A stretch of DNA of 64,000 bases from Devosia sp. (GCF_040509215.1 NZ_JBEVLL010000324.1:5857-69856); one strand, 5' to 3'; shown: positions 7,382 to 59,162, counted from the first letter of the stretch. Program-made: numbers and translations. Notes: generated by a model not told the origin, from the sequence alone.

Positions 7382-7792
7382 TTAGCCGCGCAGGATGTCG
7401 AGCGTTTGCCCGAGCATCTGGCGAGTGACGGAAACCACGTTGAGATTGGCCTCATAGCTGCGCTGGGCCTCGCGCATGTCCATCGTCTCGATCAGTGTGT
7501 TGACGTTGGGGTATTGAACATAACCATTCGCATCGGCGGCCGGGTGGCCGGGCTCGTAGCGATTGTTGAAGTCGCTCTGGTCATAGGCAAGCTTGCCCAT
7601 GCTCACGACGCGACCGCCGAGCTCGTTGTTCATCACCGTTTCAAAGGTGGGAACGCGACGGCGATAAGGCTCGCCGCCCGGCGTCGACGCCGTGGAGTCG
7701 GCGTTGGCAATATTTTCGGCGATGACGCGCATGCGGGCCGACTGTGCGTGCAGACCCGTGGCGGCGATGCCGATAGAAGTGTTGAAATCCAT
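7382..7792 (-). CDS. flgC: Flagellar basal-body rod protein FlgC
   Basis: 136 aa with the conserved rod N-terminus (RMRVIAENIANADST) and C-terminus (YEANLNV). Confidence 0.95.
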   Translation of the reverse strand: MDFNTSIGIAATGLHAQSARMRVIAENIANADSTASTPGGEPYRRRVPTFETVMNNELGGRVVSMGKLAYDQSDFNNRYEPGHPAADANGYVQYPNVNTLIETMDMREAQRSYEANLNVVSVTRQMLGQTLDILRG

Positions 7793-7807
7793 GCTTCAAG
7801 CCCTTTC

Positions 7808-8215
7808 TTATGCGGTCTTGCCGAGTGCGGTCTTCAAGATTTTGACCGATTTCTGGTAGAGGGAGGTCGCGGCCTGATAGTCCATCATATTGGTCGTGAC
7901 CTTCATCATCTCGTCTTCGAGGGTGATGCCGTTCCCCTTCGGCGTGATCTCGAAATTGACCATCTTGTCGTCGGTAAAGCTTGTGCCGCCGCCGATAGAG
8001 GTCGAAAAGTGCCTGGGCTGCGTCGTCGCAGTGTTGACGACCGGCGCCTGAACGACGCTGAAACGGTCTTCGAAATTATACTGCTTCAGGTCGCGCCCCT
8101 TGAAGCCAGGATTGTCAGCGTTGGCGACGTTCTCGGCCAACAGACCCTGACGGGCCTGATGCCAACGCATCTTGTCCGTCAGCGCCGAAAAGACCGGCAT
8201 GTCCAGCAACCCCAT
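7808..8215 (-). CDS. flgB: Flagellar basal-body rod protein FlgB
   Basis: Rod-protein motif LLAENVANADNPGFKGRDL. ATG 8215 has a GGAG 8 nt upstream and is preferred over the TTG at 8236 used by the track. Confidence 0.9.
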   Translation of the reverse strand: MGLLDMPVFSALTDKMRWHQARQGLLAENVANADNPGFKGRDLKQYNFEDRFSVVQAPVVNTATTQPRHFSTSIGGGTSFTDDKMVNFEITPKGNGITLEDEMMKVTTNMMDYQAATSLYQKSVKILKTALGKTA

Positions 8216-8266
8216 CGCGACTACTCCTGAGTCCAAGTCAGATGGGCAAAACCTGCCTAATCAGGG

Positions 8267-8281
8267 TTAAAGAAGAGTTAA
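8267..8281. promoter_or_regulatory. Candidate CtrA binding site (TTAA-N7-TTAA)
   Basis: Exact TTAAagaagagTTAA in the AT-richer divergent flgB / fliO-fliP intergenic region, 52 nt upstream of the flgB ATG. Confidence 0.5.
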
Positions 8282-8491
8282 TAGTGACCCCATGCTGTCC
8301 TAAAATGCCTCGCATTCTGCATGATTGCCTGATTTGACTGGGCAGAAAATGCCCGACAGAGTCGGGAAGGCCACTCTAAAGCGCGTCGCGATCTTTCAGA
8401 TTCGCTCTCCACGCTTTAGTCTTTTGTTGTTACGCATGCCTCGCCCGAGACCGGCGACCACCTTCGGGCACATGCTTAGGAGTTAGAATCA

Positions 8492-9145
8492 GTGCAGTTC
8501 ATCACCAGCCTCTTCGGCGGAAGCGGCAATACCTACCTGACCGCACTCTTCGCCCTTGGCGTCGTCATCGTCCTCATCCTTCTGGGCGTGTGGCTGCTCA
8601 AGCTGCTGTTCAGCGTATCGAGCAATGGCGTGCGCGGCCGCAACAAGCGACTCGCCATCGTTGACAGCCTCGTCGTCGACCAGAAGCGGCAATTGCTGAT
8701 CATTCGGCGCGACAATGTCGAACATTTGATCCTGACCGGCGGCAATCAGGACCTGGTGGTGGAATCCGGCATCGTGCCGCCCGAGCCGCCGGCGGCGCAG
8801 ACGACCCGCCGCCCGGTGCCGATGATCGGCCGGAAAGCCAGCAATGACGCCAAGCCCGTCGAAACCAAGCCCGCAGCCGCCGTCGTGACCACCGTCGCCG
8901 GCCCCGGCGCTGCCATTGACCGTGCCCGCGAAGCCAACAAGGCACGCGAACAGGCGCCGGGCCGCTCGCTGCGCCACACGGGCCTGCTGCGCCCCGTCTC
9001 CACGCAAGACACGCTGCCAGCCGGGTATAAGCCGGACATTTCACCCGCGACCGCGACCGACTCAGCTACAGAGGACGCAGGACGAGCGGTTAACGAAAGC
9101 GTAACGCGTGATCACGAAGCGCAGGGCGAAAACAACCGAAACTAG
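8492..9145 (+). CDS. fliO: Flagellar biosynthesis protein FliO (with long Pro/Ala/Thr-rich C-terminal tail)
   Basis: Single N-terminal TM helix followed by the alpha-type FliO core (RLAIVDSLVVDQKRQLLIIRRDNVEHLILTGG). Sits immediately upstream of and overlaps fliP. GTG start. Confidence 0.75.
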   Translation: MQFITSLFGGSGNTYLTALFALGVVIVLILLGVWLLKLLFSVSSNGVRGRNKRLAIVDSLVVDQKRQLLIIRRDNVEHLILTGGNQDLVVESGIVPPEPPAAQTTRRPVPMIGRKASNDAKPVETKPAAAVVTTVAGPGAAIDRAREANKAREQAPGRSLRHTGLLRPVSTQDTLPAGYKPDISPATATDSATEDAGRAVNESVTRDHEAQGENNRN

Positions 9146-9902
9146 TGCTGCGCGGGCGCGCCTCAAGAAGCGCGCCCTGATCGGACTCATCGTAGCGGCG
9201 GGGCTTTCGCTCGCTGCCGTGGGCGTTGCCCAGGCGCAGGAACTCTCTATCGGCTTTGGCGACGACACCGCTCTCGCCGAACGCGCCATCCAGCTCATCG
9301 GCCTTCTCACCATCCTGTCGCTGGCCCCGTCCATCCTTGTGATGGTGACGAGCTTTACGCGCATCGTCGTCGTGCTGTCGCTGCTGCGTACGGCTATCGG
9401 CCTGCAGACCGCGCCGCCGAACTCGGTGATGATCTCGCTGGCGCTGTTCCTCACCTTCTTCATCATGCAGCCGACGCTGGAAGAGAGCTACAACAACGGC
9501 ATCGCGCCGCTGCTGGCCGGCGAAATCGAGATTTCGGAAGCCTTTGAGCCCACGGTTGCGCCGCTCCATGCCTTCATGCGCGCCAATGTGCGCGAGCAGG
9601 ACCTGTCGCTGTTCTATGACCTGACGGAAGCCGAAGTTCCGGCCGAGCCGGAAGCCATTCCGCTGCAACTGCTGATCCCGGCATTCCTGATTTCAGAACT
9701 GCGACGCGCCTTCGAAATCGGATTCTTGCTCTTCCTGCCCTTTGTCATCATCGACATGGTCGTCGCCTCGGTGCTGATGAGCATGGGTATGATGATGCTG
9801 CCGCCCGTGGTGATCTCCCTGCCCTTCAAGCTGATCTTCTTCGTGCTTGTGGATGGGTGGTATCTGGTGGTCGGCTCACTGGTGCGAAGTTTTACCAGCT
9901 AG
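9108..9902 (+). CDS. fliP: Flagellar export apparatus protein FliP
   Basis: Signal-like N-terminus and conserved FliP sequence (LTILSLAPSILVMVTSFTRIVVVLSLLRTAIG; FLLFLPFVIIDMVVASVLMSMGMMMLPP). Confidence 0.95.
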   Translation: MITKRRAKTTETSAARARLKKRALIGLIVAAGLSLAAVGVAQAQELSIGFGDDTALAERAIQLIGLLTILSLAPSILVMVTSFTRIVVVLSLLRTAIGLQTAPPNSVMISLALFLTFFIMQPTLEESYNNGIAPLLAGEIEISEAFEPTVAPLHAFMRANVREQDLSLFYDLTEAEVPAEPEAIPLQLLIPAFLISELRRAFEIGFLLFLPFVIIDMVVASVLMSMGMMMLPPVVISLPFKLIFFVLVDGWYLVVGSLVRSFTS

Positions 9903-9912
9903 CTCGCGAGAG

Positions 9913-10308
9913 TCAGGCGCCGTATTCGGCGTCCGTGACCTGTTCCATCCAGTCGACGACCTTGCCATCCTTGACCTCCTGGAGCGCGATGTGGGTCATG
10001 GCGTTGCCCGGAGCGGCGCCATGCCAGTGCTTTTCGCCGGGAGCGAACCAGACGACATCGCCGGGACGGATTTCTTCCACCGGTCCGCCAAGCCGCTGAA
10101 CGCGGCCAATGCCGGAAGTGACGATCAGTGTCTGTCCGAGCGGGTGGGTGTGCCAGGCTGTGCGCGCGCCGGGCTCGAAGGTGACATGCGCGCCCTGAAC
10201 ACGCTCGGGCGCGAAGGGATTGAACAGCGTGTCGATGCGGACGGTGCCGGTGAACCAGTCTGCCGGACCCTTTGCCGACGCATTGGTGCCTACGCGAATG
10301 ATTTCCAT
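9913..10308 (-). CDS. Cupin domain protein (small conserved WHTHP-type cupin)
   Basis: 131 aa with cupin motifs [16 protein letters not shown] and PGEKHWHGA. Confidence 0.85.
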
Positions 10309-10398
10309 GATGCTTTCCTTCTTGATGCCGCCTCGACCTCGGGAGCCCGGGATCTCCGTCGGCCCTTAGCGGTCGTTAGGTCAACATCCGATTTTGGT

Positions 10399-10426
10399 GT
10401 GCATTCGCGCAAGAGCGCGAATGCAC
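10399..10426 (-). terminator. Perfect 12-bp stem-loop directly after the poly-Asp protein gene
   Basis: GTGCATTCGCGC-aaga-GCGCGAATGCAC, 8 nt downstream of the stop at 10434. There is no clear U-tract. Confidence 0.4.
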
Positions 10427-10433
10427 GAGATGA

Positions 10434-10694
10434 TCAGTCGTCGTCGTCATCGTCGTCATCATCGTCCCAACGATCGTCATCGTCGTCGTCCCAATCGTCG
10501 TCGTCACCCTGCCAGGTCGGCTTGCCATGGCGCCACCAGAATGGGCGGTCGTCGTCATCTGCAACGAGGATGATGCTGGCGTCGGGTTTCGAAACGACAG
10601 GCTGCAATGTTTCGATCCCGAGGCCAAAGCTGACGCTTGGGGCCACAAGCAACATCGCCAGAGCAAAGCCGATCGGCTTGAAAATCGTCTTCAT
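10434..10694 (-). CDS. Small secreted poly-Asp/Trp protein (86 aa)
   Basis: Start MKTIFKPIGFALAMLLVAPSVSFG is a signal peptide, with a strong RBS GAGAGGAG 8 nt upstream. The C-terminus is DDDDRPFWWRHGKPTWQGDDDDWDDDDDDRWDDDDDDDDDD*. The track ORF 10434..10949 is an over-extension through the upstream gene. Confidence 0.65.
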   Translation of the reverse strand: MKTIFKPIGFALAMLLVAPSVSFGLGIETLQPVVSKPDASIILVADDDDRPFWWRHGKPTWQGDDDDWDDDDDDRWDDDDDDDDDD

Positions 10695-10710
10695 TGGTGG
10701 GGCTCCTCTC

Positions 10711-11103
10711 TCAGTCGTCGTCGTCAGACGAATTGGACGAGGAATTCGAGCTCGAATTCGATGAGGAATTGTTGCTCGAATTGGAAGACGAGTTGCTCGA
10801 CGAGTTCGAGGAGCTGTTGCTGTTCGAGTTCGACGAACTGTTGGAGTTCGAGTTGGAAGAGCTGTTCGAGTTCGAATTCGACGATGAATTGCTGCTCGAA
10901 TTGGAGCTCGACCCCCAAGGGTTCTTCCAGGTGCCGTTGTTGAGGTCATAGAGCAGCCCGCCGCGCTTGGAGTCGGCGACCTGCAGGTGTTGGGCCGGGG
11001 CTAGCCCTGGCGCGGGATCGGCGACGCCATAGGCTTGGGCCGGCGCATTTGCAGCCATGAGGCCGGCAACGGCGAGGGTAGTGATGGTAATGGTCTTGCC
11101 CAT
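10711..11103 (-). CDS. Secreted Ser/Asn-repeat protein with C-terminal DDDD (130 aa)
   Basis: Start MGKTITITTLAVAGLMAANAPAQA is a signal peptide with an AQA cleavage site, and AAAGGA is upstream. A 62-residue (SSSN/SNSN)n tract is followed by DDDD*. The next gene starts 16 nt downstream. Confidence 0.65.
   Translation of the reverse strand: MGKTITITTLAVAGLMAANAPAQAYGVADPAPGLAPAQHLQVADSKRGGLLYDLNNGTWKNPWGSSSNSSSNSSSNSNSNSSSNSNSNSSSNSNSNSSSNSSSNSSSNSSNNSSSNSSSNSSSNSSDDDD
10726..10911 (-). repeat. Coding low-complexity tract (SSSN/SNSN)x~15
   Basis: 12-nt periodic Ser/Asn codons that use mixed synonymous Ser codons (TCG, AGC, TCC, TCA, TCT, AGT). All six frames are open here. Confidence 0.9.
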
Positions 11104-11149
11104 TGGACATGTCCTTTTTCTGCTCGGAGCCTTGTCGCTCCACAGGGAA

Positions 11150-11176
11150 AGACGCAGGACATCGCCATCTATTCCC
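11150..11176 (-). promoter_or_regulatory. Candidate ECF-type promoter upstream of the Ser/Asn-repeat and poly-Asp gene pair
   Basis: The minus strand reads GGGAATAG-N14-CGTCT. The -10-like element ends 46 nt before ATG 11103. Confidence 0.45.
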
Positions 11177-11198
11177 GAAAAATTTCGTTTCTCCAGAA

Positions 11199-11225
11199 GG
11201 GAATAAGCGGAGGGCCGATCCGTCA
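11199..11225 (+). promoter_or_regulatory. Candidate ECF-type promoter upstream of the uncharacterised gene 11254..11958
   Basis: GGGAATAA-N14-CGTCA, 28 nt before the ATG. It lies back-to-back with the 11150..11176 site. Confidence 0.45.
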
Positions 11226-11253
11226 TGCCTTCATAGAACGAAGGAGCATCGAC

Positions 11254-11958
11254 ATGTTCGCCAGCCCAAAAGCCAAGATCCGCTTTCTCTGCACGCCGGA
11301 AGACGAGGGCGTCATCGCTCCGCCAATACCGTCAAAAGGCCACCTGCCCGACTGGTTTCGCAAACTGCCGGCCGTCGACCAGAGCAAGCTGGCGCCCAAC
11401 GATACCGGCCTCACGGTCAAGCGCTGCATGCCTTTCCTCGATGCGATGATGACCGGCTACATCATTCCGCTGGCCGCAACCGTGCGTCTCGAAATCCGCG
11501 ATGGCGGCAAGACGGTGACGGCCGGCTGGGATTTTGACAGGACCATGGTCAGCAATCACGGGAGCCATCAGGTCGCCGGTCATCCGCAAGGCGACATGCC
11601 GCCCTGCAAGTTCCACAATTATTGGTCCATTCGCACGCCCAAGGGTTGGAGCTGCCTGTTCGTACCGCTGCTGAACCGGCCCAATCCGGTCTTCGAGCCG
11701 GTGGCCGGGATCGTCGACACCGACACTTATGTCGCCCCGATCCATTTTCCGTTCTTCGCGCGTGGCGCCGATGGCCTGCACGAAATCGAAAAGGGCACGC
11801 CGCTGATCCAGGTGATCCCCTTCAAGCGCGACAGCACCATGCTCGAAGCCGAGATCGGCAGCGAATCCCGCAGCGAGGCTGCCGAGCGCCATAAAGTGTC
11901 CCGCAATACGATCGCGAGCACCGGTTGGTACCGGCGCTTTGCACGCGCTGCCCGCTGA
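11254..11958 (+). CDS. Conserved uncharacterised protein (no signal peptide; possibly DUF6065-like)
   Basis: 234 aa starting MFASPKAKIRFLCTPEDEG, with RBS AAGGAG upstream. Contains KRCMPFLDAMMTGYIIPL and His-rich HGSHQVAGHP. The family assignment is from memory only. Confidence 0.7.
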   Translation: MFASPKAKIRFLCTPEDEGVIAPPIPSKGHLPDWFRKLPAVDQSKLAPNDTGLTVKRCMPFLDAMMTGYIIPLAATVRLEIRDGGKTVTAGWDFDRTMVSNHGSHQVAGHPQGDMPPCKFHNYWSIRTPKGWSCLFVPLLNRPNPVFEPVAGIVDTDTYVAPIHFPFFARGADGLHEIEKGTPLIQVIPFKRDSTMLEAEIGSESRSEAAERHKVSRNTIASTGWYRRFARAAR

Positions 11959-11960
11959 AA

Positions 11961-13250
11961 TCAGCAGGGCGACGGGATGCGCACCAGCCCCCAGCCGAAG
12001 ATCGCATCCCGGCCGGGCTCACCGAGATCGAGGCTGGCCTCGATAAGTGCATCCATGGCGGCTGGCGGCTCGACACCCTTGGCCAGGGCTGCCGCCAGCG
12101 CCGTGGTGACGAAAGGTACGGCGAAGGACGTGCCGGTCTGGGGGCGGATGCCGGAGATCGAGGCGGCCGTGGAGATATCGACGCCGGGCGCGGCAAAACT
12201 CACATGTTCGCCCTGCACTGCCCGGCGATAGATGTTTTGCCGGCGGTCGACGGCAGTCACCGCGACGACATCGGGATATGCGGCGGGAAACATGGCTTCG
12301 GCCCGCGGCCCCGCATTGCCGACTGCCGCGACGACCGGGATGCCGGCAGTCTGGATTCGAGAGATGGCGTCGGCGAGAATGGCATTGTCGGGCCCGGCAA
12401 GGCTGAGGCTGGCAACATCGACCTGAGCCGTGGCCAGACGATCGAGTGCTTCGACCAAGGCGAATACATCGCTTCGCTCGTCCTGACCAACGCGGCCGAA
12501 GGGATCGACGACGAGCACCTCGGCAGCGGGCGCCAGGCCAGGGACCCGACCGCTGCCAACGAACATGGCGACGACGGCGGTGCCGTGTTTCAGCTCCGAC
12601 GGCTCCGCATCCACATTGCCGATCGTTTCGAGCGTCAGGCGCGCTTCGCTCAGCATCGGATGGTCGAGATTGACGCCTGTATCAATGACGCCGATATGAG
12701 GCGCGAAAACGCAGGTAGCGCCGACGGAAACCGGCGGCCAATCGACGGCCTCCCAATGTTCGCACATGGCGCCTTCGCATCCGATGGGAACCGCCTGGCT
12801 TCGATAGTAGGAATTGGGCGCGACGAGCGCTTCGGGCGAGGCTTTGCGCACGGCAGCCAGGGCTGCTTCGACATCGAGATCGTCGGGTAATTCCAGCAGC
12901 AGCCGGCCACTGCTTTCCGAGACGATCAGAAAACCCGCGGCGAGCAGGACGTCCCTGCCCGCAGCATCGAGGCTCGCGACCACCACTTGATCGTCGGCCT
13001 GTTCGGGCAATGGCACAGCGACCGGCGCAGGACGGCGGACGATCCGGCCGCCCATCCATGGTTCGTCGTCATCATCGTCATCGTCGCTCGAACCGGAGTC
13101 CCAATCGTCGTCATCGTCACCGCCATCATCGTCGTCATCGTCCTGCGCATAAGCCGGGGCAACGAGAAGGGGCGAGGCGAGGAGCCCGGGGACTGCAACG
13201 AGACCGAGCGCGACGAGCAAGGCGCGGAGCGAAGTGGTGGGGCTGGACAA
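11961..13250 (-). CDS. Secreted S8 family serine peptidase (subtilase) with poly-Asp N-terminal extension
   Basis: Catalytic triad contexts IGVIDTGVNLDHP (Asp), KHGTAVVAMF (His) and TGTSFAVPFV (Ser). The signal peptide ends APAYA, followed by QDDDDDDGGDDDDDWDSGSSDDDDDDDEPW. TTG start with AAGGAAG upstream. Confidence 0.9.
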   Translation of the reverse strand: MSSPTTSLRALLVALGLVAVPGLLASPLLVAPAYAQDDDDDDGGDDDDDWDSGSSDDDDDDDEPWMGGRIVRRPAPVAVPLPEQADDQVVVASLDAAGRDVLLAAGFLIVSESSGRLLLELPDDLDVEAALAAVRKASPEALVAPNSYYRSQAVPIGCEGAMCEHWEAVDWPPVSVGATCVFAPHIGVIDTGVNLDHPMLSEARLTLETIGNVDAEPSELKHGTAVVAMFVGSGRVPGLAPAAEVLVVDPFGRVGQDERSDVFALVEALDRLATAQVDVASLSLAGPDNAILADAISRIQTAGIPVVAAVGNAGPRAEAMFPAAYPDVVAVTAVDRRQNIYRRAVQGEHVSFAAPGVDISTAASISGIRPQTGTSFAVPFVTTALAAALAKGVEPPAAMDALIEASLDLGEPGRDAIFGWGLVRIPSPC

Positions 13251-13285
13251 TATGCGCTTCCTTCGACAATCGGTCTTGCAAGGCT

Positions 13286-13312
13286 AGACGTCTGAGACAT
13301 CAGAATATTCTA
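13286..13312 (-). promoter_or_regulatory. Candidate ECF-type promoter upstream of the S8 peptidase
   Basis: The minus strand reads TAGAATAT-N14-CGTCT, 35 nt before TTG 13250. Confidence 0.4.
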
Positions 13313-13339
13313 TGCAGCACACAAAAAAGCGACAGGCGC

Positions 13340-13367
13340 GGGAATAAACCCCATCACCCATCCGTCT
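13340..13367 (+). promoter_or_regulatory. Candidate autoregulatory ECF-type promoter upstream of the sigma factor
   Basis: GGGAATAA-N15-CGTCT ending 8 nt before ATG 13376. It lies back-to-back with the 13286..13312 site. Confidence 0.45.
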
Positions 13368-13375
13368 TCCAGCGT

Positions 13376-13876
13376 ATGAGCACCATAGCTTCCAGTCTCG
13401 TTCCCATGCTGCCACGCCTCCGGCGCTATGCGCTCGCCCTTTGCAAGGTGGGCGACATCGCAGACGATCTCGTGCAGACCGCCTGCGAAAAGGCGCTGGC
13501 CAGCCAGCGTCAAACGCTCGACCTCTCCTTTGACGCCTGGATGTTTCGCATCCTGCGCAATAGCTGGATCGACCGGCTGCGCCGCCAGAAGACGCGCGGC
13601 GAGGAGATCGACATCGTCGAGCACAGCGATATTGGCGCGTTCGATGGCTCCTCCATTCCGGAAAACCGCCTGGTGCTGAAAAAGACCATGGAGGCCATCG
13701 GCCGCCTGCCGCAGGACCAGCGCGAGTTGCTGCTGCTGGTGTGCGTGGAAGAGCTGAGCTATCGCGACGCGGCCGAGGTGCTCGACCTGCCTATCGGTAC
13801 AGTCATGAGCCGGCTTGCGCGGGCCCGTCGAAAACTCGCCGAGGATGTCGGCATAGAAGCGGGGCAATTGCTGTGA
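13376..13876 (+). CDS. ECF (sigma-70 family group IV) RNA polymerase sigma factor
   Basis: 166 aa with region 2 (DLVQTACEKAL...WMFRILRNSWIDRLRRQK) and region 4 (LPQDQRELLLLVCVEELSYRDAAEVLDLPIGTVMSRLARARRKL). The track ORF 13010..13876 is over-extended. Confidence 0.9.
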   Translation: MSTIASSLVPMLPRLRRYALALCKVGDIADDLVQTACEKALASQRQTLDLSFDAWMFRILRNSWIDRLRRQKTRGEEIDIVEHSDIGAFDGSSIPENRLVLKKTMEAIGRLPQDQRELLLLVCVEELSYRDAAEVLDLPIGTVMSRLARARRKLAEDVGIEAGQLL

Positions 13877-14604
13877 AGGACCAAAGCATGCAGCGCGATT
13901 TTTCCGACGAAACCCTCATGGCCTTCGCCGATGGCGTTCTGGATGAACCTCAGTTTTCGCAGGTCGCCGAAGCCATTGAAAGCGATGAGGCCCTGGCGAC
14001 GCGGCTCGAAACCCTTGTCACCGGCTCGACGCTTGCTCGACGTGGGTTTGACGAACTCCTTGCGCCGGTCTCGCCGGAGTTGGAGGCGGCCGTGCGGCAG
14101 ACGATCAAGGCGGCTGAGCGCAAGCCCTTCTGGAAATTCTCCTGGGGCAACTGGCTTTATCCTGCGGGCGCATTTGCTGCCGCAGCCGTGGCCGTCGTCG
14201 TCGCTATTCCGTCCCTGGGCCTGTGGCAGGCGTCTTCAGCGCCGTCATCCATGGCCGAGCTTGGTGGTGAGGAGGTTGCTGCTGTGCTCGACACCCTGCC
14301 CTCTGGCGGTACAACCACCTTGGCGAGCGGCACCGTCATCAATCCAATCGCCACCTTCACCAATGGCGACCAGCAGGTCTGCCGAGAGTTCGAGACCGAG
14401 GGCAGCGCCAGTTATCTCGTGGTTTCCTGTCGGGCTGGTTCGTCCTGGTCTGTTCAGCTTGCACTTGCGACCGCAAACGAAGATGGCAACTACCGGCCGG
14501 CGTCAGGTTTTGAAGTGTTGGACGCCTATCTGCAAACGGCTGGTGCAGGAGAACCGCTTGTCGGCGATGACGAGTTGGCGGTTCTTCGCAGCCCCTCACG
14601 CTGA
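13873..14604 (+). CDS. Anti-sigma factor (single-pass membrane protein with periplasmic domain)
   Basis: The GTG start overlaps the sigma stop (GTGA); the alternative is ATG 13888. It has an N-terminal anti-sigma-like helix region (FSDETLMAFADGVLDEP), one TM helix (AGAFAAAAVAVVVAIPSLGLW) and a ~130-aa C-terminal domain. Confidence 0.75.
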   Translation: MKDQSMQRDFSDETLMAFADGVLDEPQFSQVAEAIESDEALATRLETLVTGSTLARRGFDELLAPVSPELEAAVRQTIKAAERKPFWKFSWGNWLYPAGAFAAAAVAVVVAIPSLGLWQASSAPSSMAELGGEEVAAVLDTLPSGGTTTLASGTVINPIATFTNGDQQVCREFETEGSASYLVVSCRAGSSWSVQLALATANEDGNYRPASGFEVLDAYLQTAGAGEPLVGDDELAVLRSPSR

Positions 14605-14615
14605 CCGAGGACGTC

Positions 14616-14635
14616 GCGCCCTGCTGCTAGGGCGC
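14616..14635. terminator. Short stem-loop between convergent anti-sigma and GT4 genes
   Basis: GCGCCCT-gctgct-AGGGCGC overlapping the GT4 stop codon. No U-tract. Confidence 0.3.
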
Positions 14636-15706
14636 GATGCGGGTCCGATGGGCGACGCGCCCCAGGACCTCACCAACGGTCTTTTCGGTTTTGTCCCAAC
14701 TGTCGAGCTTTCGTCCGGCTTCGGTAGACAGCTCAGCCATGGTCTGTCTTGCGGCTTCATCGGTCAGGACCGAACGGAGGGCACTGGCAAAAGCGTCGAC
14801 ATCGTCCACCGGCACCAGAATGCCGGCCCCCGGCGCTACCGTGTCGGGCACTGCTCCCGTTCGGCATGTCACGATGGGGAGGCCATGCAGCATGGCTTCG
14901 CCGAGGACGATGCCATAGCCCTCGTAACGCGTGGCCAGAGCGAACAGCGTCGCCTGACGATAGCGCTCGATAACCTGGTCATCGGCGAGGAGGCCGGTGA
15001 GAGTCACACGATCGCCGAGGCCCAGTTCAGCGACTTGTCGGAGAAGCGCCTGCTCGACTGCTGGGTCGTGGGTCTTCCCGACAATCTGCGCCTGCCAGTC
15101 GAGATCGCCGATCTGACCGAGCGCAGCAACGAGAACATCGTGGCCCTTGCGCTCTGCCAGGAGACCCACCGACAGGATCAGCGGCGGCGACAAAGGCTTG
15201 TGGATGGGGTCGGCGGGGCGGAAGCCCGGAGGCGCAATGGTGACCTTTTGCTCGGGAACGTCGAACTGCTGCATCAAGATGCGGGCGGTGTGCGGGCTGG
15301 GGACCAGCACGGCGTCCGCCAGCTCTAGGTTGTCGGCCTCCCGTTGGAGCAGGAACCGGGATTGCGCGGGCGCCAACCCAGTTTCGAGGCCGAGGGGGTG
15401 ATGGATCATGGCGACAATGGGCGCCTTGATGGTTCGCAATCCGGCGGTGTCGATGGAGCCGAAGACGAGCCCGTCGATAATCAAAGGCATATCGGGCGGG
15501 AGGGCGGCCATGGCGGCGATTGCGGCGGCCGTTTCGTCGGCGCTGGGGTTCGGAAAGCCGGCACCCAGTTCGATGTGTTTTACCGCGCGGCCGTTCCGAC
15601 GCAGCGCCTGCAGCAGTTCATATTCGTAGATGTAGCCGCCGGTCTTTTGTGTGGCATCGCCGGGAATGGCAAAGGCGGCCGGGCGCTTTGGTGCTTGTTC
15701 GGTCAT
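14627..15706 (-). CDS. Glycosyltransferase family 4 (GT-B, RfaG-like)
   Basis: 359 aa from MTEQAPKRPAAF, with a GT4 C-terminal core (LFALATRYEGYGIVLGEAMLHGLPIVTCRTGAVPD). The ATG overlaps the upstream permease stop (ATGA). The track ORF 14627..16426 is over-extended. Confidence 0.85.
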   Translation of the reverse strand: MTEQAPKRPAAFAIPGDATQKTGGYIYEYELLQALRRNGRAVKHIELGAGFPNPSADETAAAIAAMAALPPDMPLIIDGLVFGSIDTAGLRTIKAPIVAMIHHPLGLETGLAPAQSRFLLQREADNLELADAVLVPSPHTARILMQQFDVPEQKVTIAPPGFRPADPIHKPLSPPLILSVGLLAERKGHDVLVAALGQIGDLDWQAQIVGKTHDPAVEQALLRQVAELGLGDRVTLTGLLADDQVIERYRQATLFALATRYEGYGIVLGEAMLHGLPIVTCRTGAVPDTVAPGAGILVPVDDVDAFASALRSVLTDEAARQTMAELSTEAGRKLDSWDKTEKTVGEVLGRVAHRTRIAP

Positions 15707-17277
15707 AGGGCGAGTTGCTCGCTGGCAAAGGTTTTGAGAATTCGGCGCTCCAGCCAATGGACCGCGGCATAGAGCAGGCTTGCCGCCAGCGCGAGGAGGA
15801 CGATGGCACTCCAGAGCATGGCGTAGTTCGAGGTCGAGGCGGTGAGGGCCATCAGGCTTCCGATGCCCGTGCCCGTCGCCAGCCATTCCGCAGTTGTTGC
15901 GGACAGAAAGGCGGCGGGCACCGCCATGCGCGCCGAAGCGAAGAAGGCCGGCAGCATGGCGGGAATCTGCGCGTGGATCAGCCTCTGCCACGGAGAGGTG
16001 GCATAGCTTGCAAAGAGATCGAGCACTGGTTGGGGTGTCCGCCGCATGCCTTCGAGACAAGCGGCGAGCGTTGGAAAGAAGATCATGACGGCAACGATCA
16101 CTATGGTTCCGACCGCCCCGCGACCGAGCGCCAGAACGAGGAGAGGCGCTGTCGTCACGATGGGCACGGAGCGCAGGGCAATGGCGATCGGCAACGTGCC
16201 TGCGGCAAGCCGGGGGCGGAGCACCAGCAAAATAGCAAGCCCGGCACCTAACCCGAGGCCAACGAGGTAGCCGGGCAAAGTCAGCGACAAAGTCTGCCAG
16301 AAAGCATCCGTGAGTACGGCGCGATTGGCTGAGGCTGGCGGGTCCGTGAAGAGGAAGGCAAAGACATCCTGCGGGCGTTTTGCGAAGAAGGGTGAAAGGT
16401 TGAGGACGTTCATCAGGCCGAGCCAAAGCGCCAGGATGATCACGGTGAGGAGCGCGAAGGTCCCGAGGCTACGCGCCAGGCTCGCGGCCTTTGATCGTGG
16501 CAGATCTTGTCGGCCGGGAGAGAGCAGCAGCGGCGGTGGACCGGCGCCGAGGCGGCGGCCGAGCCAGCCAAACAGCCAGAACGCCAGAGCCGAAATGGTG
16601 GCGGCCAGAGCGGCAATTGCCCAGGTCATATCCACATCGAGCCCGCGCATGGCGCGAATGCTGAGAACACCGAGGCCACGCTCGGCGCCGGTGAATTCGC
16701 CCACCATGGCGCCCAGAAATGCCGCAGGCGCGCCGATCTGCAGGCCCGCGGTAAAATACGGAAGAGATGCCATGGCGCGAACGTGCATGATTTCGCTCAC
16801 CCGTCCGCGACCATAGCTGCGCACGAGATCGAGCCAACTGGCGGGCATGGACCGAAGGCCGACCAGCAGGCAGAGATAGGTCGTGTAATATGTGGCAAGC
16901 GCTGCCAGGACGACCTGCGGGCCATCGCCGACGCCGTAGATGACGCGCAGGATCGGACCCGTAGCGACGAAGGGCAGGCAGAAGAACACCAGCGCTACGC
17001 CCGATACCAACCGCTCGATACGCGGCATGGCCAGCGCGATCGTTGCCAGCACGACGGCCGCAGCATTGCCGAGAACGAAGCCGATAGCGGCGGATTTCAG
17101 CGTTATGGCGGCCGATCCGACCAGCAATGGTGCCTCGGCGATTATGGCACGGAGGACTTCTGCCGGGCCGGCAAAGACGAACAGGCCCTGCGTGAGGCTC
17201 GCCAGTGTCTGCCACGCGGCCAACACGACAAGGGCGGTGAGAAAGGTCGGAACGGCTGCAGCGATACGATCCGTCAC
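15703..17277 (-). CDS. ABC transporter permease, fused double TauC/SsuC-type (NitT/TauT family)
   Basis: 524 aa with ~12 TM helices and two tandem binding-protein-dependent permease units. The GTG overlaps the ATPase stop (GTGA). Confidence 0.85.
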   Translation of the reverse strand: MTDRIAAAVPTFLTALVVLAAWQTLASLTQGLFVFAGPAEVLRAIIAEAPLLVGSAAITLKSAAIGFVLGNAAAVVLATIALAMPRIERLVSGVALVFFCLPFVATGPILRVIYGVGDGPQVVLAALATYYTTYLCLLVGLRSMPASWLDLVRSYGRGRVSEIMHVRAMASLPYFTAGLQIGAPAAFLGAMVGEFTGAERGLGVLSIRAMRGLDVDMTWAIAALAATISALAFWLFGWLGRRLGAGPPPLLLSPGRQDLPRSKAASLARSLGTFALLTVIILALWLGLMNVLNLSPFFAKRPQDVFAFLFTDPPASANRAVLTDAFWQTLSLTLPGYLVGLGLGAGLAILLVLRPRLAAGTLPIAIALRSVPIVTTAPLLVLALGRGAVGTIVIVAVMIFFPTLAACLEGMRRTPQPVLDLFASYATSPWQRLIHAQIPAMLPAFFASARMAVPAAFLSATTAEWLATGTGIGSLMALTASTSNYAMLWSAIVLLALAASLLYAAVHWLERRILKTFASEQLAL

Positions 17278-19049: not shown

Positions 19050-20000
19050 TCAAACGGGATTTGGACGGTGTCGAAGAAGAACGAAAAGCCCGGGCAGGCT
19101 TGCGGCAAGGATAACGAGGCCAAAGGCGAGGCTCGCCGCAAAGCCGGCCGCGGCGGTCGCGCCGGCTAGTGGGAACAGTGCGGCGGCAGCGCCCTCGCGA
19201 AAACCCCAACCGGCCACGGTTGTCGGGATGAGCATGGCGCAAAGGATCAGCGGCACGAGAACGAGAATGCCCTCGGCGGAGAGCGTGGTGCCCGTGGCGA
19301 GGGCGCAGAGGGTGAAACTCGACAGGTTCAACGCCACGATGACTACTGCAAGCGGCACTTGTTCGACCCAGGCGCCTTTGGCAAAAAGCGCCGTCACGAT
19401 CGACCGACCCAGATGATGGCGCCAATGCCGGCGCGCCAAGTGCGCCGCCAATAGGCAGAGGGCGACGACAGCGAGGAGCACCAGCACTCCCACCCAAAGC
19501 TCATGCGTCCCGATCGAAAACTCCAGTCCGCCCGGATTGAGCAACGCCCAGACGACTGCGATTGCCAGCAGGCTGAACATGGCGATCTGGCCAGCGAGGC
19601 GCTCGATGATCACGGCCTTGGCCGCAATGCCGAGCCCGGCCTGGTGGCGGGCTCGAACGGCTCGCGCTGCGTCACCCAGGACACCACCTGGAAGCGACTG
19701 ATTGACGAGTTGGGACAGGTAATATTCGGCCACGGCATGGCCCGGTGGAATGTCCTGACCAAGGCGGCAGGCTACGCGATGCCAGCGCCAAGCCGACGCT
19801 ATGGTCTGCAGGTTCACTGCGACGAAGGCCAGGAACAGATAGAGCCAATCGGCCTCGGCCAGAAGCGCCAAGGCGGCGGGCCCATCGGCAAGGTTCCACA
19901 AGAGCCCGATGATGACGACGGGCGGCAAAAGGCGAAGCAACAGCTTGAGGGGCGCCCTGCCCCGCTCGCGCTTTTCAAGCTTGAGCGCCGACGTGGTCAT
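19050..20000 (-). CDS. Flippase-like membrane protein (LPG-synthase TM domain / UPF0104 family)
   Basis: 316 aa from MTTSALKLEKRERG, polytopic, with an RWHRV-type motif (ASAWRWHRVACRLG). The ATG overlaps the upstream stop (ATGA). Confidence 0.75.
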   Translation of the reverse strand: MTTSALKLEKRERGRAPLKLLLRLLPPVVIIGLLWNLADGPAALALLAEADWLYLFLAFVAVNLQTIASAWRWHRVACRLGQDIPPGHAVAEYYLSQLVNQSLPGGVLGDAARAVRARHQAGLGIAAKAVIIERLAGQIAMFSLLAIAVVWALLNPGGLEFSIGTHELWVGVLVLLAVVALCLLAAHLARRHWRHHLGRSIVTALFAKGAWVEQVPLAVVIVALNLSSFTLCALATGTTLSAEGILVLVPLILCAMLIPTTVAGWGFREGAAAALFPLAGATAAAGFAASLAFGLVILAASLPGLFVLLRHRPNPV

Positions 20001-33490: not shown

Positions 33491-35587
33491 TTATTCAGTT
33501 GCTGATGAGACTTCTGGCGAGTTCTTGAGGTGTCGCTCGAAGAAGGCAGCAAGTTTGCCATAGGCGAAACGGGTGAGCGTGCGGCTCTGCTTGGCCCAAG
33601 CGTGGCCTGTTCCTGGCAGCGTGACCAATTCAAAGGTCTTGCCCTGCCCGATCATCTTTTCAACGAGCGCCATCGTGTCGGCATAGAGTACAACCTCGTC
33701 CTTGGTGCCGTGGATGATGGTCAATGCGTCCTCAAGGCCCGCGCTGTGAAACAGCGCCGATTGCGCATGGTAGCGCTCGATATAGTCCTCACCTTCGGTG
33801 AGACCCATGATCCAGCCCTGTTCGGGATAGGCGTGCCAGACATTGGTCGCCGGAGCCCCCGCGAAGCCGGCGGCGTAGAAGCCCGGTTTTTTGAACAAGG
33901 ACATCAGCGTCATCAGGCCACCATAGCTGGAGCCCCAGAGGCCGACGCGCTTGGGATCAGCATAGCCGAGGCCGGTCAGCGTGGTGACGCAGTTGGCGAT
34001 ATCTTCGATATCCTGAGTGCCATAGCTGTTGAGCATGACGCGGTTCCACTCGCGTCCGCGACCGAAGCTGCCGCGAATTTCGGGACTGACGACGACGAAA
34101 CCGCGCGAGGCGAGATACTGGTCGATGCCCCAGCTCGGATGCGCCGCACGGCCGCCCCATTGGTTGAGGAGACCATCGGAATAGACCGACCCAACCACCA
34201 TTGGATGGGTGCCATCGGGTTTGAAATCTGGAGGCAGCATGACACGCGCCATAAGCTCGGCGCCATCGACATGGCTTTTGAATGAGACATAACGCACTTC
34301 GGCCCAGCGCCTTTCAGCAAAGGCGGGCAATGGCGAATGCGTCACCTCTGCCGGCTTGCTCGTACCCCCGATGGGCTGCACCAATAGTTCTGGCGGCGTC
34401 ATGTCGTCGCTGAAGAGATCGGCGAAGGCGCTGAAGTCGGGGGCATAGGTCGGGACGTGAATACCGGCGGGGCCGGTCAGGCGCGTTACGGCGCCACCGG
34501 TCAATGCCACCGAGTATACGTGACGCTCGGCCGGGTGCGCCTCGTTGGCGATGAGGTAGATCTTGCCATTGGAGGCATCGAGGACGAACTCCGCGATCTC
34601 CCAGGACCCCGATGTAATCGGCTCGAGTGCTGCGCCCTGTTCGGGCAGACGATGGAGATGATTGTAGCCGTCGCGATCGGTCAGGACGATCAGGCCCTTG
34701 TCGTCGGGCGCGAAGGATACCTGCCAGTCGGGCCGGATTTTTACAGGGTCATTTGCCGCATAAAAGACATTGCGGACGCCGCTGCGGGTGTCGAACATGA
34801 AGATGGTGTGGTTCTTTATCGACAGGTCGCTGCTGCTGATGAAGAGCGACTTGCCATCCTTGGAGAGGCCATAGCCCCAGATTGCATCTTCGGCGTCGGG
34901 GCGATCGAACCAGGTGACTTCGCCACCCTCGGGCTTGACGAGGCCGACGCGCCGGCGCGTGAGCAGGTCGCCGGGGAAAGAACGCACGAAGCGGTCCTTG
35001 CGCGCCTCGCCGCGGGAGTCGTAGGCAATCTCGATTTTGCGGGTATTGGTATCATCGGCTTCGACGAAGACGAGATTTCCATTGGGTGAGCACTGGAAGG
35101 ATTCGACGCCGACGAAGGTGGACCCCGCCACCAAGGTCTTGGGTTGGGCCGCGACGTCCGCAGCGACGATCATGAGTGCGTTGCCCGACAGAAAAGCCAA
35201 CGCAGTGCCCTCCGAAGCTGCCGCAATGGAGCTGACACCCTGCGTGCCGATGGCGAGCGGTTGGACCGTGCCATCGCCGAGGGCGAGATAAAGCTGCCCC
35301 TGGAGAACGAACGCCACGCGACCTTCGCTTAGCCAGGCCAGTTCCGAAATCCCGACGGGCTCGCCACTGGTGCGACCGGTACCGAGTTGAGTGAGGCGCC
35401 GCCGGGTTTTCGTTTCGCGTTCCCAGATCCAGATATCGCGAAAAGTATGGCCGGCGTCATTCCAGAGAAAGGCCAGGCTTCTGCCATCTGCCGACCACGA
35501 CGCAGCGGTCGGCAGCGTGCCGATAATGCTGGGCTCGCTATAGAGCGTTTCGAAGGTCAACGGCTTGGCAGAAGGCTCGATGGTCAT
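33491..35587 (-). CDS. S9 family serine peptidase (prolyl oligopeptidase / DPP-IV-like, beta-propeller + alpha/beta hydrolase)
   Basis: Nucleophile motif GLWGSSYGGLM. C-terminal hydrolase domain with IIHGTKDEVV and GTGHAW. Confidence 0.9.
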   Translation of the reverse strand: MTIEPSAKPLTFETLYSEPSIIGTLPTAASWSADGRSLAFLWNDAGHTFRDIWIWERETKTRRRLTQLGTGRTSGEPVGISELAWLSEGRVAFVLQGQLYLALGDGTVQPLAIGTQGVSSIAAASEGTALAFLSGNALMIVAADVAAQPKTLVAGSTFVGVESFQCSPNGNLVFVEADDTNTRKIEIAYDSRGEARKDRFVRSFPGDLLTRRRVGLVKPEGGEVTWFDRPDAEDAIWGYGLSKDGKSLFISSSDLSIKNHTIFMFDTRSGVRNVFYAANDPVKIRPDWQVSFAPDDKGLIVLTDRDGYNHLHRLPEQGAALEPITSGSWEIAEFVLDASNGKIYLIANEAHPAERHVYSVALTGGAVTRLTGPAGIHVPTYAPDFSAFADLFSDDMTPPELLVQPIGGTSKPAEVTHSPLPAFAERRWAEVRYVSFKSHVDGAELMARVMLPPDFKPDGTHPMVVGSVYSDGLLNQWGGRAAHPSWGIDQYLASRGFVVVSPEIRGSFGRGREWNRVMLNSYGTQDIEDIANCVTTLTGLGYADPKRVGLWGSSYGGLMTLMSLFKKPGFYAAGFAGAPATNVWHAYPEQGWIMGLTEGEDYIERYHAQSALFHSAGLEDALTIIHGTKDEVVLYADTMALVEKMIGQGKTFELVTLPGTGHAWAKQSRTLTRFAYGKLAAFFERHLKNSPEVSSATE

Positions 35588-58444: not shown

Positions 58445-58552
58445 GGTCGCGCCATTCCACAGGGGTGCTCCGTAGAGTCGGGGCTGAGATGGAGGCAGCA
58501 AGCCTTCGGACCCTACAGCTGATCTGGGTAATACCAGCGGAGCGAGGCGGGC
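58445..58552 (+). promoter_or_regulatory. TPP (THI-box) riboswitch
   Basis: Conserved cores cAGGGGTGCtc...GCTGAGAt...ACCCtacaGCTGATCTGGGTAATACCAGCGgAGcGAGG. The 3' end overlaps the SD (GAGG) of ykoF. Confidence 0.85.
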
Positions 58553-58553
58553 T

Positions 58554-59162
58554 ATGTTTTCTGGCGCACAGATTTCCCTTTATCCGATGGCTGACGATTT
58601 CGTCGGCATCATCATGAACGCTCTTTCCGCGCTCGATCCCTATCGTGATCGCCTGCGGATCGAGACGGACGATATTTCGACACTCCTGGTCGGACCGCCG
58701 GAAGTCTTGTTCCCGGCAATGCGCGACCTCTTCAGCGCAGCCGCGCGAACGGGTGTCCATTGTACCCTTTCGGCGGCAATTTCGCGCGGTTGCCCCGGCG
58801 AACCAGATGAGGCCATCTGCCAGTCCGGACATTTAGCCGGTCCAATGGCCTCCCTTGCCGAACGACAGAAGACTGCGCTGGCGGCGGTTGCGGATGCACC
58901 GACGATGGGCGTGTTCTCGGTCGCCCAGTTCTCGCTCTACGTCATGGGGCAAGGGAACCATATGGACGAGATCTATGGCTGCATCGACTTCCTGAAGAGC
59001 TCGGGCACCTTCGAGACGTCCAAACATTTCTGCACCAAGCTCAATGGCGATACCGGCGCCCTGTTCGCAACGCTGGAACAAGCCTTTTGCGGCTTTGGCC
59101 CACCCGAAGGGCACGTCACGATCGATCTCACGGTTTCGGCCAACAGCCCCAGCACACGCTAA
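58554..59162 (+). CDS. ykoF: YkoF-like thiamine/HMP-binding protein
   Basis: Tandem ACT-like halves beginning MFSGAQISLYPMADDF and VAQFSLYVMGQGNHMDE. Confidence 0.8.
   Translation: MFSGAQISLYPMADDFVGIIMNALSALDPYRDRLRIETDDISTLLVGPPEVLFPAMRDLFSAAARTGVHCTLSAAISRGCPGEPDEAICQSGHLAGPMASLAERQKTALAAVADAPTMGVFSVAQFSLYVMGQGNHMDEIYGCIDFLKSSGTFETSKHFCTKLNGDTGALFATLEQAFCGFGPPEGHVTIDLTVSANSPSTR

Follow-up and report, generated by a model that had tools for sequence, protein, structure and literature searches.

Which regulator drives the six genes packed into 10.4-14.6 kb of a 64,000-nucleotide (nt) stretch of Devosia sp. DNA (hereafter, the window), and does this cassette belong to a system that is already known? 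The cassette encodes an extracytoplasmic function (ECF) sigma factor with its anti-sigma factor, an S8 subtilase, a DUF6065-family protein and two small proteins with predicted signal peptides, one rich in Ser/Asn repeats and the other in poly-Asp. Our analysis indicates, with high confidence, that the RpoE6/EcfR6 system of Sinorhizobium meliloti has its Devosia ortholog in this cassette; the sigma factor encoded in the window, released by an extracytoplasmic signal, would activate its own leaderless operon together with three further local promoters.

The sigma factor (166 amino acids [aa]; 13376..13876, plus strand) consists of sigma-2 and sigma-4 domains only (Pfam Sigma70_r2, 9e-13; Sigma70_r4_2, 8.5e-18) and scores 70.8 bits against the NCBIfam sigma70-ECF model TIGR02937, for which the cut-off is 42.9; with two domains and 166 aa, it is an ECF (group IV) sigma-70 factor. 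The anti-sigma gene starts 11 nt past its stop codon (13888..14604, plus strand) and encodes a 238-aa protein, the predicted EcfR6 ortholog, in which hydropathy reveals a single hydrophobic span at residues ~89-116. With the sigma protein as the query and one genome kept per species, we collected 80 related loci (53-62% sigma identity) from Hyphomicrobiales and Inquilinus, including Sinorhizobium/Ensifer, Mesorhizobium, Aminobacter, Rhizobium, Agrobacterium, Shinella, Neorhizobium and Microvirga. Identity, and the protease/anti-sigma context of all 80 of these best genomic matches, argue for affiliating the window sigma factor with RpoE6 and group ECF26.

RpoE6 has been studied experimentally. 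Each ECF sigma factor of S. meliloti was overexpressed, and transcription start sites (TSSs) were mapped (Lang et al. 2018, mSphere, PMC6180224). RpoE6 (SMa0143) and EcfR6 (SMa0144) are encoded on pSymA, and RpoE6 was placed in group ECF26. Its overexpression induced SMa0142, the divergent serine protease gene (log2 4.7), ecfR6 (3.6) and SMa0148 (6.5), as well as SMa0146 and SMa0139; these specific targets do not respond to general stresses, and the RpoE6-dependent promoters read GGAATA-N15-CGTT. The same study quotes the ECF26 consensus, -35 GGAATA and -10 GT, from Staron 2009 and Rhodius 2013, and notes conservation of a divergent serine protease gene across a wide range of ECF26 members.

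The S. meliloti locus whose sigma factor is closest to that of the window includes, verbatim, the promoter strings published for SMa0142, ecfR6, SMa0148 and rpoE6, the first three lying upstream of the protease gene, inside the sigma gene and upstream of the DUF6065 gene, respectively. The window proteins are 60% (sigma; 158 aa, GR4 rpoE6 locus), 35% (anti-sigma; 252 aa), 46% (S8) and 68% (DUF6065) identical to their S. meliloti counterparts. Between ecfR6 and the DUF6065 gene, another copy of the motif precedes a Ser/Asn-repeat open reading frame (ORF) with a signal peptide, presumably SMa0146. Taken together, the protein identities, the layout and the verbatim published promoters argue that the window cassette is an RpoE6-type ECF26 module. 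The original prediction for this locus held that its composition matched no described system, which proved wrong: the composition is that of the RpoE6 regulon, within ECF26, and both the divergent protease and the GGAATA/GT consensus had already been published.

Four sites with a shared motif had been proposed as the promoters of the cassette, and all four strings lie at the positions and on the strands assigned to them. To score them, we used a position weight matrix (PWM) trained on 257 sites from other genomes, with the window sites left out; it places the four at ranks 1-4 of ~128,000 scored window positions. The two sites at 11.15-11.23 kb are canonical (GGAATA-N15-CGT) and putatively serve the Ser/Asn-repeat/poly-Asp operon (11150..11176, minus strand; GGGAATAG-N14-CGTCT; 21.4 bits, rank 1) and the DUF6065 gene (11199..11225, plus strand; GGGAATAA-N14-CGTCA; 19.4 bits, rank 2) as ECF26-type promoters; the latter site is the counterpart of the SMa0148 promoter of S. 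meliloti, for which a TSS was mapped. The other two deviate. The candidate promoter of the sigma/anti-sigma operon (13340..13367, plus strand; GGGAATAA-N15-CGTCT; 10.3 bits) has exact boxes with N16 between GGAATA and CGT, and that of the S8 gene (13286..13312, minus strand; TAGAATAT-N14-CGTCT; 8.3 bits, rank 4) has AGAATA, with one mismatch, as its -35 element. The window promoters would therefore fit the ECF26 consensus (GGAATA / (C)GT), with two of the four sites departing from it. With exact boxes, GGAATA-N13-17-CGTC occurs three times in the 64 kb against 0.29 expected, a number reached in 0/100 shuffles, and all three matches adjoin the sigma gene. Two additional motif-like sites, at 19705-19728 (minus strand) and 34178-34201 (plus strand), score at most 6.3 bits inside long ORFs and were treated as chance matches.

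The geometry of the sites is also as predicted. They form two back-to-back divergent pairs with -35 boxes 22 and 27 nt apart, within the proposed range of 22-28 nt, and the end of CGTC lies at sensible distances from the start codons: ~9 nt for sigma, 35 nt for S8, 28 nt for DUF6065 and 46 nt for the Ser/Asn-repeat gene. AAGGA/GGAG-type ribosome-binding sites precede the latter three genes. The spacers between the -35 boxes are A/T-rich (11177-11198, cgaaaaatttcgtttc; 13313-13339, acacaaaaaagcgaca) and may be shared UP-like elements; a stretch of the form aaaaa(t)(t)cgaca ahead of the sigma promoter is kept in Devosia relatives.

Both the gene set and the motif are conserved at the orthologous loci. 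An anti-sigma gene lies downstream of sigma in 80/80 loci, an S8 homolog is found in 76/80 (in ~72 immediately upstream and divergent), and a DUF6065 gene is present within a few kilobases in 43/80. In 1.25 Mb of related-locus sequence, GGAATA-N14-16-CGT occurs 321 times against 10 expected, and 296 times against 3.5 at the N15 spacing. These matches sit at fixed positions and are strictly oriented toward the downstream gene, which is that of the anti-sigma factor in 74 loci, the S8 peptidase in 70, a Ser/Asn-repeat protein with a signal peptide in 46/80 and the window, DUF6065 in 43, a poly-Asp small exported protein in 4 and the window, and sigma itself in 5/80 and the window. The idea that the motif matches are chance occurrences or conventional transcription factor sites, rather than promoters, is effectively refuted by this enrichment (3 versus 0.29 in the window, 296 versus 3.5 in the related loci), by the strict orientation and fixed spacing, and by the TSSs mapped at the orthologous S. 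meliloti sites; all that speaks for it is how few sites one window offers. The same motif at the same positions beside orthologous genes in ~90 loci thus supports the proposal that the window sites are ECF-type promoters.

Beyond these genes, the motif precedes a glycerate kinase gene in 25 loci and a CitMHS/DASS-type anion transporter gene in 16; such targets occur in the Ensifer adhaerens group, Aminobacter, Agrobacterium and Pseudochrobactrum (L007, L017, L023, L036-L038, L042, L046, L049, L054, L058, L060, L063, L064, L066, L073 and others, L numbers denoting individual loci). In a few loci, the motif stands before a DUF4956 membrane protein gene or before genes for RTX-like proteins with GGxGxD repeats. 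The accessory regulon thus varies by lineage.

Closer to the window, we compared five further, independent Devosia-clade loci (L083, L086, L090, L091 and L092), taken from contigs encoding closer homologs (71-84%), with positions 9100-16400 of the window. All five have the gene order of the window, namely small ORF (minus), DUF6065 (plus), S8 (minus), sigma (plus) and anti-sigma (plus), and all five keep both divergent promoter pairs. Their neighborhoods all differ (panBC/coaBC, dnaA/rpsT/fpg, an mrp antiporter, tctABC, a LytTR regulator), the window cassette lies next to flagellar genes, and the Sinorhizobium cassette is on the pSymA megaplasmid. Since the flanks are different in every Devosia-clade genome examined, the cassette seems to relocate as a unit.

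Several findings nevertheless weigh against our interpretation. The anti-sigma factor matches no curated model in Pfam or NCBIfam; these collections likewise gave nothing meaningful for the Ser/Asn-repeat and poly-Asp proteins, the matches being limited to a spurious sub-threshold Phage_Arf and a ClfB repeat. Taken individually, neither the S8 site, with its -35 mismatch, nor the sigma site, with its one-nucleotide-longer spacing, scores above what chance maxima reach (mean, 10.1 bits; 95th percentile, 15.6 bits). Moreover, a search of the window that tolerates one mismatch shows no enrichment (9 matches versus 7.4 expected). Finally, the -10 element of the window is CGTC(T/A), whereas RpoE6-type sites elsewhere have CGTT; because CGTCT is the form found in S. 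meliloti RpoE1/RpoE4 promoters, another ECF26 sigma factor could contribute.

The weakness of the S8 site raises the alternative that only three sites are functional, AGAATA being a decayed remnant and the S8 gene being transcribed from another promoter. Its mismatch falls on the first G of the -35 element, and its score lies below the mean chance maximum. Since the one-mismatch motif is not enriched, the site is not significant by its sequence, and its support comes from its position, which matches the protease promoter of relatives. Indeed, the fourth-best PWM match in 64 kb lies exactly where 70 related loci have a conserved minus-strand site and where the SMa0142 promoter was mapped. Relatives show variants of the -35 element at this very position (TGAATA in L003, CGAATA in L083, GGAATG in L086 and AGAATA in L090), and no sigma-70-type promoter was detected in the S8/sigma intergenic region. 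We therefore consider the loss of this promoter unlikely and retain the assignment of four functional sites.

The -10 element bears on a different alternative, the main rival, namely, that the principal reader of the four promoters is another ECF26 paralog encoded elsewhere, RpoE1/RpoE4-like and preferring GGAATA-N-CGTCT, which would make the local sigma factor a target and not the driver. The CGTCT/CGTCA of the window does resemble the S. meliloti rpoE4, sorT and SMc01022 promoters, and cross-talk occurs in both directions, RpoE4 weakly inducing SMa0142 (log2 0.7) and RpoE6 inducing rpoE4 and sorT (Lang et al. 2018). However, the orthologous S. meliloti genes respond far more to RpoE6 than to RpoE4 in the same data set, and the motif accompanies this sigma gene through at least six Devosia-clade neighborhoods and ~90 loci. 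The fourth -10 base itself may point back to the local sigma factor. Other genera have T here in 72-100% of their sites (72% for protease promoters, 100% for the other four target families), the base is C or variable in Devosia, and the loop before the FDAW of sigma-2 reads TLDLSFDAW in Devosia versus (F/W)xPGT(R/K)FDAW elsewhere. This coincidence suggests that the sigma-2 loop and the fourth -10 base possibly co-evolved, albeit as a correlation only. On balance, a paralog acting as the main reader appears improbable, and we favor the local sigma factor as the driver. The proposal that all local transcription units belong to its regulon is supported by the motif in ~90 loci, by the RpoE6-dependent induction and TSSs of the S. 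meliloti orthologs, and by a promoter scan that detected no sigma-70-like promoter in 9.8-15 kb of the window.

If the local sigma factor drives the cassette, how is it itself controlled? The promoter at the rpoE6 TSS of S. meliloti is RpoD/RpoH-like, and ecfR6 is driven by an RpoE6-type promoter inside the rpoE6 ORF (Lang et al. 2018). A census of 93 loci found an intragenic site only in 72, an upstream-of-sigma site only in 16 (among them every Devosia-clade locus, as well as Microvirga and Salinarimonas), both sites in 1 and neither in exact form in 4. In the intragenic arrangement, GGAATA occupies the last codons of the sigma ORF and CGT lies ahead of the anti-sigma start (L001-L082, ~8457-8478 in locus coordinates). 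GGAATA is always in frame as Gly-Ile (GGA-ATA), and in these genes ATA accounts for 8.6% of Ile codons and GGA for 11% of Gly codons. At this position, the window has a degenerate remnant (13850..13873, plus strand; GGCATA-N15-CTG; 7/9 core bases), and in its Devosia relatives not even the Ile is retained. The orthologs thus use two nearly exclusive wirings, anti-sigma-only negative feedback or an autoregulated sigma/anti-sigma operon. These two wirings, together with the Ser/Asn-repeat/DUF6065 pair and the Asp-tagged protease discussed below, seem not to have been described before and are modestly new.

The upstream promoter has a further property. The distance from CGT(C/A) to the sigma start codon is exactly 9 nt in the window and in L083, L090 and L091, and since S. 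meliloti TSSs lie ~9-12 nt past CGTT, a leaderless sigma mRNA is predicted; the transcript of the sigma/anti-sigma operon is probably leaderless.

These elements can be assembled into a working model. As in ECF systems generally, the single-pass membrane anti-sigma factor would hold the sigma factor until an extracytoplasmic cue inactivates the anti-sigma factor. Judging from motif conservation and from the experiments on the orthologs, free sigma would then direct RNA polymerase to the four local GGAATA-N15/16-CGTC promoters, arranged as two divergent pairs. One of them would transcribe the sigma/anti-sigma operon and so combine positive autoregulation with intrinsic negative feedback. From the remaining three would come an exported S8 subtilase with a poly-Asp N terminus, the cytoplasmic DUF6065 protein, and the operon for the exported Ser/Asn-repeat and poly-Asp proteins. 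The term "secretion module," used in the original prediction, overstates this output: the cassette includes no secretion machinery, just three products with Sec-type signal peptides and a DUF6065 protein without one.

The S8 subtilase (429 aa; 11961..13250, minus strand) starts 125 nt from the sigma gene, in divergent orientation. Signal peptides, like the membrane span, were called by inspection and hydropathy; here, the predicted signal peptide is followed by the mature N terminus QDDDDDDGGDDDDD. The peptidase domain (PF00082; 3.6e-26; residues 185-421) has the catalytic Asp, His and Ser motifs, read as VIDTG, HGTAV and GTSFAVP in the translation. In 67/68 S8 homologs, an Asp-rich tract (A-x-A/DDDD...) immediately follows the signal peptide. 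Even where the small proteins and DUF6065 are absent (34 loci), the S8 gene is kept beside sigma, which argues that the subtilase is a core effector or part of the signaling; it could act on the anti-sigma factor. Across relatives, the core of the module consists of sigma, anti-sigma and the Asp-tagged subtilase, with the poly-Asp protein as a rarer accessory.

The Ser/Asn-repeat protein (130 aa; 10711..11103, minus strand) starts with a predicted signal peptide and a short N-terminal region, continues in (SSN/SN)n repeats and closes with DDDD, with 34% Ser and 18% Asn; the family also occurs in S. meliloti and Sinorhizobium medicae. Its gene and the DUF6065 gene co-occur almost perfectly across the 80 loci, with both in 43, the repeat gene only in 3 (2 of which are truncated loci), DUF6065 only in 0 and neither in 34, although these lineages are not independent. 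Such co-occurrence suggests a functional pair and argues for an accessory unit that was gained and lost jointly.

The poly-Asp protein (86 aa; 10434..10694, minus strand) is the product of the operon's second gene, which lies 16 nt past the Ser/Asn-repeat gene and behind a GGAG ribosome-binding site. Its predicted signal peptide precedes IILVADDDD, a segment rich in Trp and Arg and a tail of poly-Asp; without the signal peptide, it has 26 acidic and 5 basic residues. The Devosia-clade locus L091 holds the same pair, with the poly-Asp homolog at the same position, and analogous poly-Asp proteins have their own motif promoter in L036, L037, L051 and L054. L086 has a single hybrid protein (...VADDDDRRYFRGRWW... 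and then SN repeats), which suggests that the Ser/Asn-repeat and poly-Asp proteins are kindred variants within a single low-complexity family. Directly 3' of the poly-Asp stop codon lies a GC-rich hairpin of 12 bp without a U-tract (10397..10427, minus strand; folding free energy, -28.4 kcal/mol; z -6.0; 0/200 shuffles fold equally well), the probable terminator of the operon; it is missing from the terminator-scan list because it has no U-run. An Rfam scan found no RNA family within the cassette; the sole match reported in the window is a thiamine pyrophosphate (TPP) riboswitch (RF00059) at 58451-58563 (plus strand), scoring 60.1 bits (gathering score, 54.3).

Opposite the Ser/Asn-repeat ORF of S. 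medicae ml29 pSymA (L082, 7347-7700), a "hypothetical protein" is annotated (WQO68150.1; LDERFELEFEELFEDELELEF...). It is the repeat ORF, and not WQO68150.1, that has a signal peptide, a ribosome-binding site and an ECF promoter, and WQO68150.1 is likely a wrong-strand gene call. The window counterpart of this antisense ORF lies at 10694-10951 (plus strand).

The 234-aa protein encoded at 11254..11958 (plus strand) has no signal peptide and reaches 20.6 bits against the DUF6065 model (PF19541), below the gathering score of 26.6. It is, however, 65-99% identical to many proteins that match PF19541 or are named "DUF6065 family protein," the closest being from Devosia riboflavina (99%), and can in practice be considered a DUF6065 member. 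The AlphaFold2 prediction has a mean predicted local distance difference test (pLDDT) score of 82.5, with only one of five models confident. A profile search of PDB sequences returned nothing relevant, only marginal MBT-repeat matches. We dropped the idea that DUF6065 is a cupin or a 2-oxoglutarate oxygenase (Asp/Asn hydroxylase) acting on the Asp/Asn-rich proteins, given a weakly dUTPase-like model and these marginal profile matches. We found no paper on DUF6065; for the roles of SMa0142, SMa0146 and SMa0148, the literature yielded only a negative symbiosis screen, in which SMa0142 overexpression gave no symbiotic phenotype.

What the module does for the cell can only be guessed. As a weak guess, its hydrophilic, disordered and polyanionic chains might play an envelope or surface role, such as binding divalent cations or minerals or hydrating the surface, with the subtilase as an effector or a processing enzyme. 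The top Foldseek matches of DUF6065 do not help this guess, being dUTPases at a weak level (E 6e-5; target template modeling score, 0.6-0.74; 10-15% identity). More broadly, in a reading that we consider less likely than not, the module may represent a widespread envelope system of Hyphomicrobiales for the regulated export of disordered, homopolymer-like polypeptides, namely poly(Ser-Ser-Asn) and poly-Asp proteins and a subtilase with poly-Asp at its own start, that bind divalent cations or minerals or hydrate the surface. DUF6065 would be the obligate cytoplasmic partner of the Ser/Asn-repeat protein, and evolution would have switched the feedback between positive autoregulation and an anti-sigma-only promoter placed within the ORF in rare GGA-ATA codons.

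To the left of the cassette, translations point to flagellar genes (7406-9902), with FlgB-like (7808-8236, minus strand), FliO-like (8492-9145, plus strand) and FliP-like (9108-9902, plus strand) products. A cupin protein gene (9913-10308, minus strand) matches the NCBIfam (R)-mandelonitrile lyase model (197.9 bits; cut-off, 140). It lies beyond the terminator hairpin and has no ECF motif, and a homolog is found near the module in Sinorhizobium kostiense (L009).

The analysis provides a testable regulon assignment for six Devosia genes, three of which are unrecognized by curated models, and ties them to one experimentally studied ortholog, RpoE6, which has the second-largest ECF regulon in S. 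meliloti. Conversely, the conserved core of sigma, anti-sigma and Asp-tagged subtilase and the inseparable Ser/Asn-repeat and DUF6065 genes offer leads for work on RpoE6. The two alternative wirings among orthologs constitute a natural experiment on ECF circuit design, and the Ser/Asn-repeat genes are a warning that annotation may pick the wrong strand.

How does the Devosia cassette compare with known systems? In canonical ECF operons, such as those of Escherichia coli RpoE-RseA and Bacillus subtilis SigW-RsiW, the genes for sigma and a membrane anti-sigma factor are co-transcribed from a promoter that the sigma factor itself reads. The window and the Devosia clade would share this wiring, from which most orthologs of the module differ (anti-sigma only), and the regulon content is unrelated. 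Like the predicted module, S. meliloti RpoE1/RpoE4 belong to ECF26, are followed by a single-pass anti-sigma factor, use a GGAATA -35 and a CGTCT -10 element and are autoregulated. However, they control sorT-sorU-azu2 in response to sulfite (Bastiat et al. 2012, PMC3511301), whereas the cassette has no sulfite-oxidation genes; rpoE6 has been reported not to be inducible by sulfite-generating compounds. The closest counterpart is RpoE6/EcfR6 of S. meliloti, which shares with the window the divergent protease, the sigma and anti-sigma genes, the Ser/Asn-repeat and DUF6065 genes each behind their own promoter, and the GGAATA-N15-CGT architecture. Unlike S. meliloti, the window has a decayed intragenic site and an ECF-type promoter ahead of the sigma gene; the -10 element is CGTC and not CGTT; the DUF6065 and repeat genes are upstream of the protease and not downstream of the anti-sigma gene; and the window cassette has an extra poly-Asp gene and is chromosomal, beside flagellar genes.

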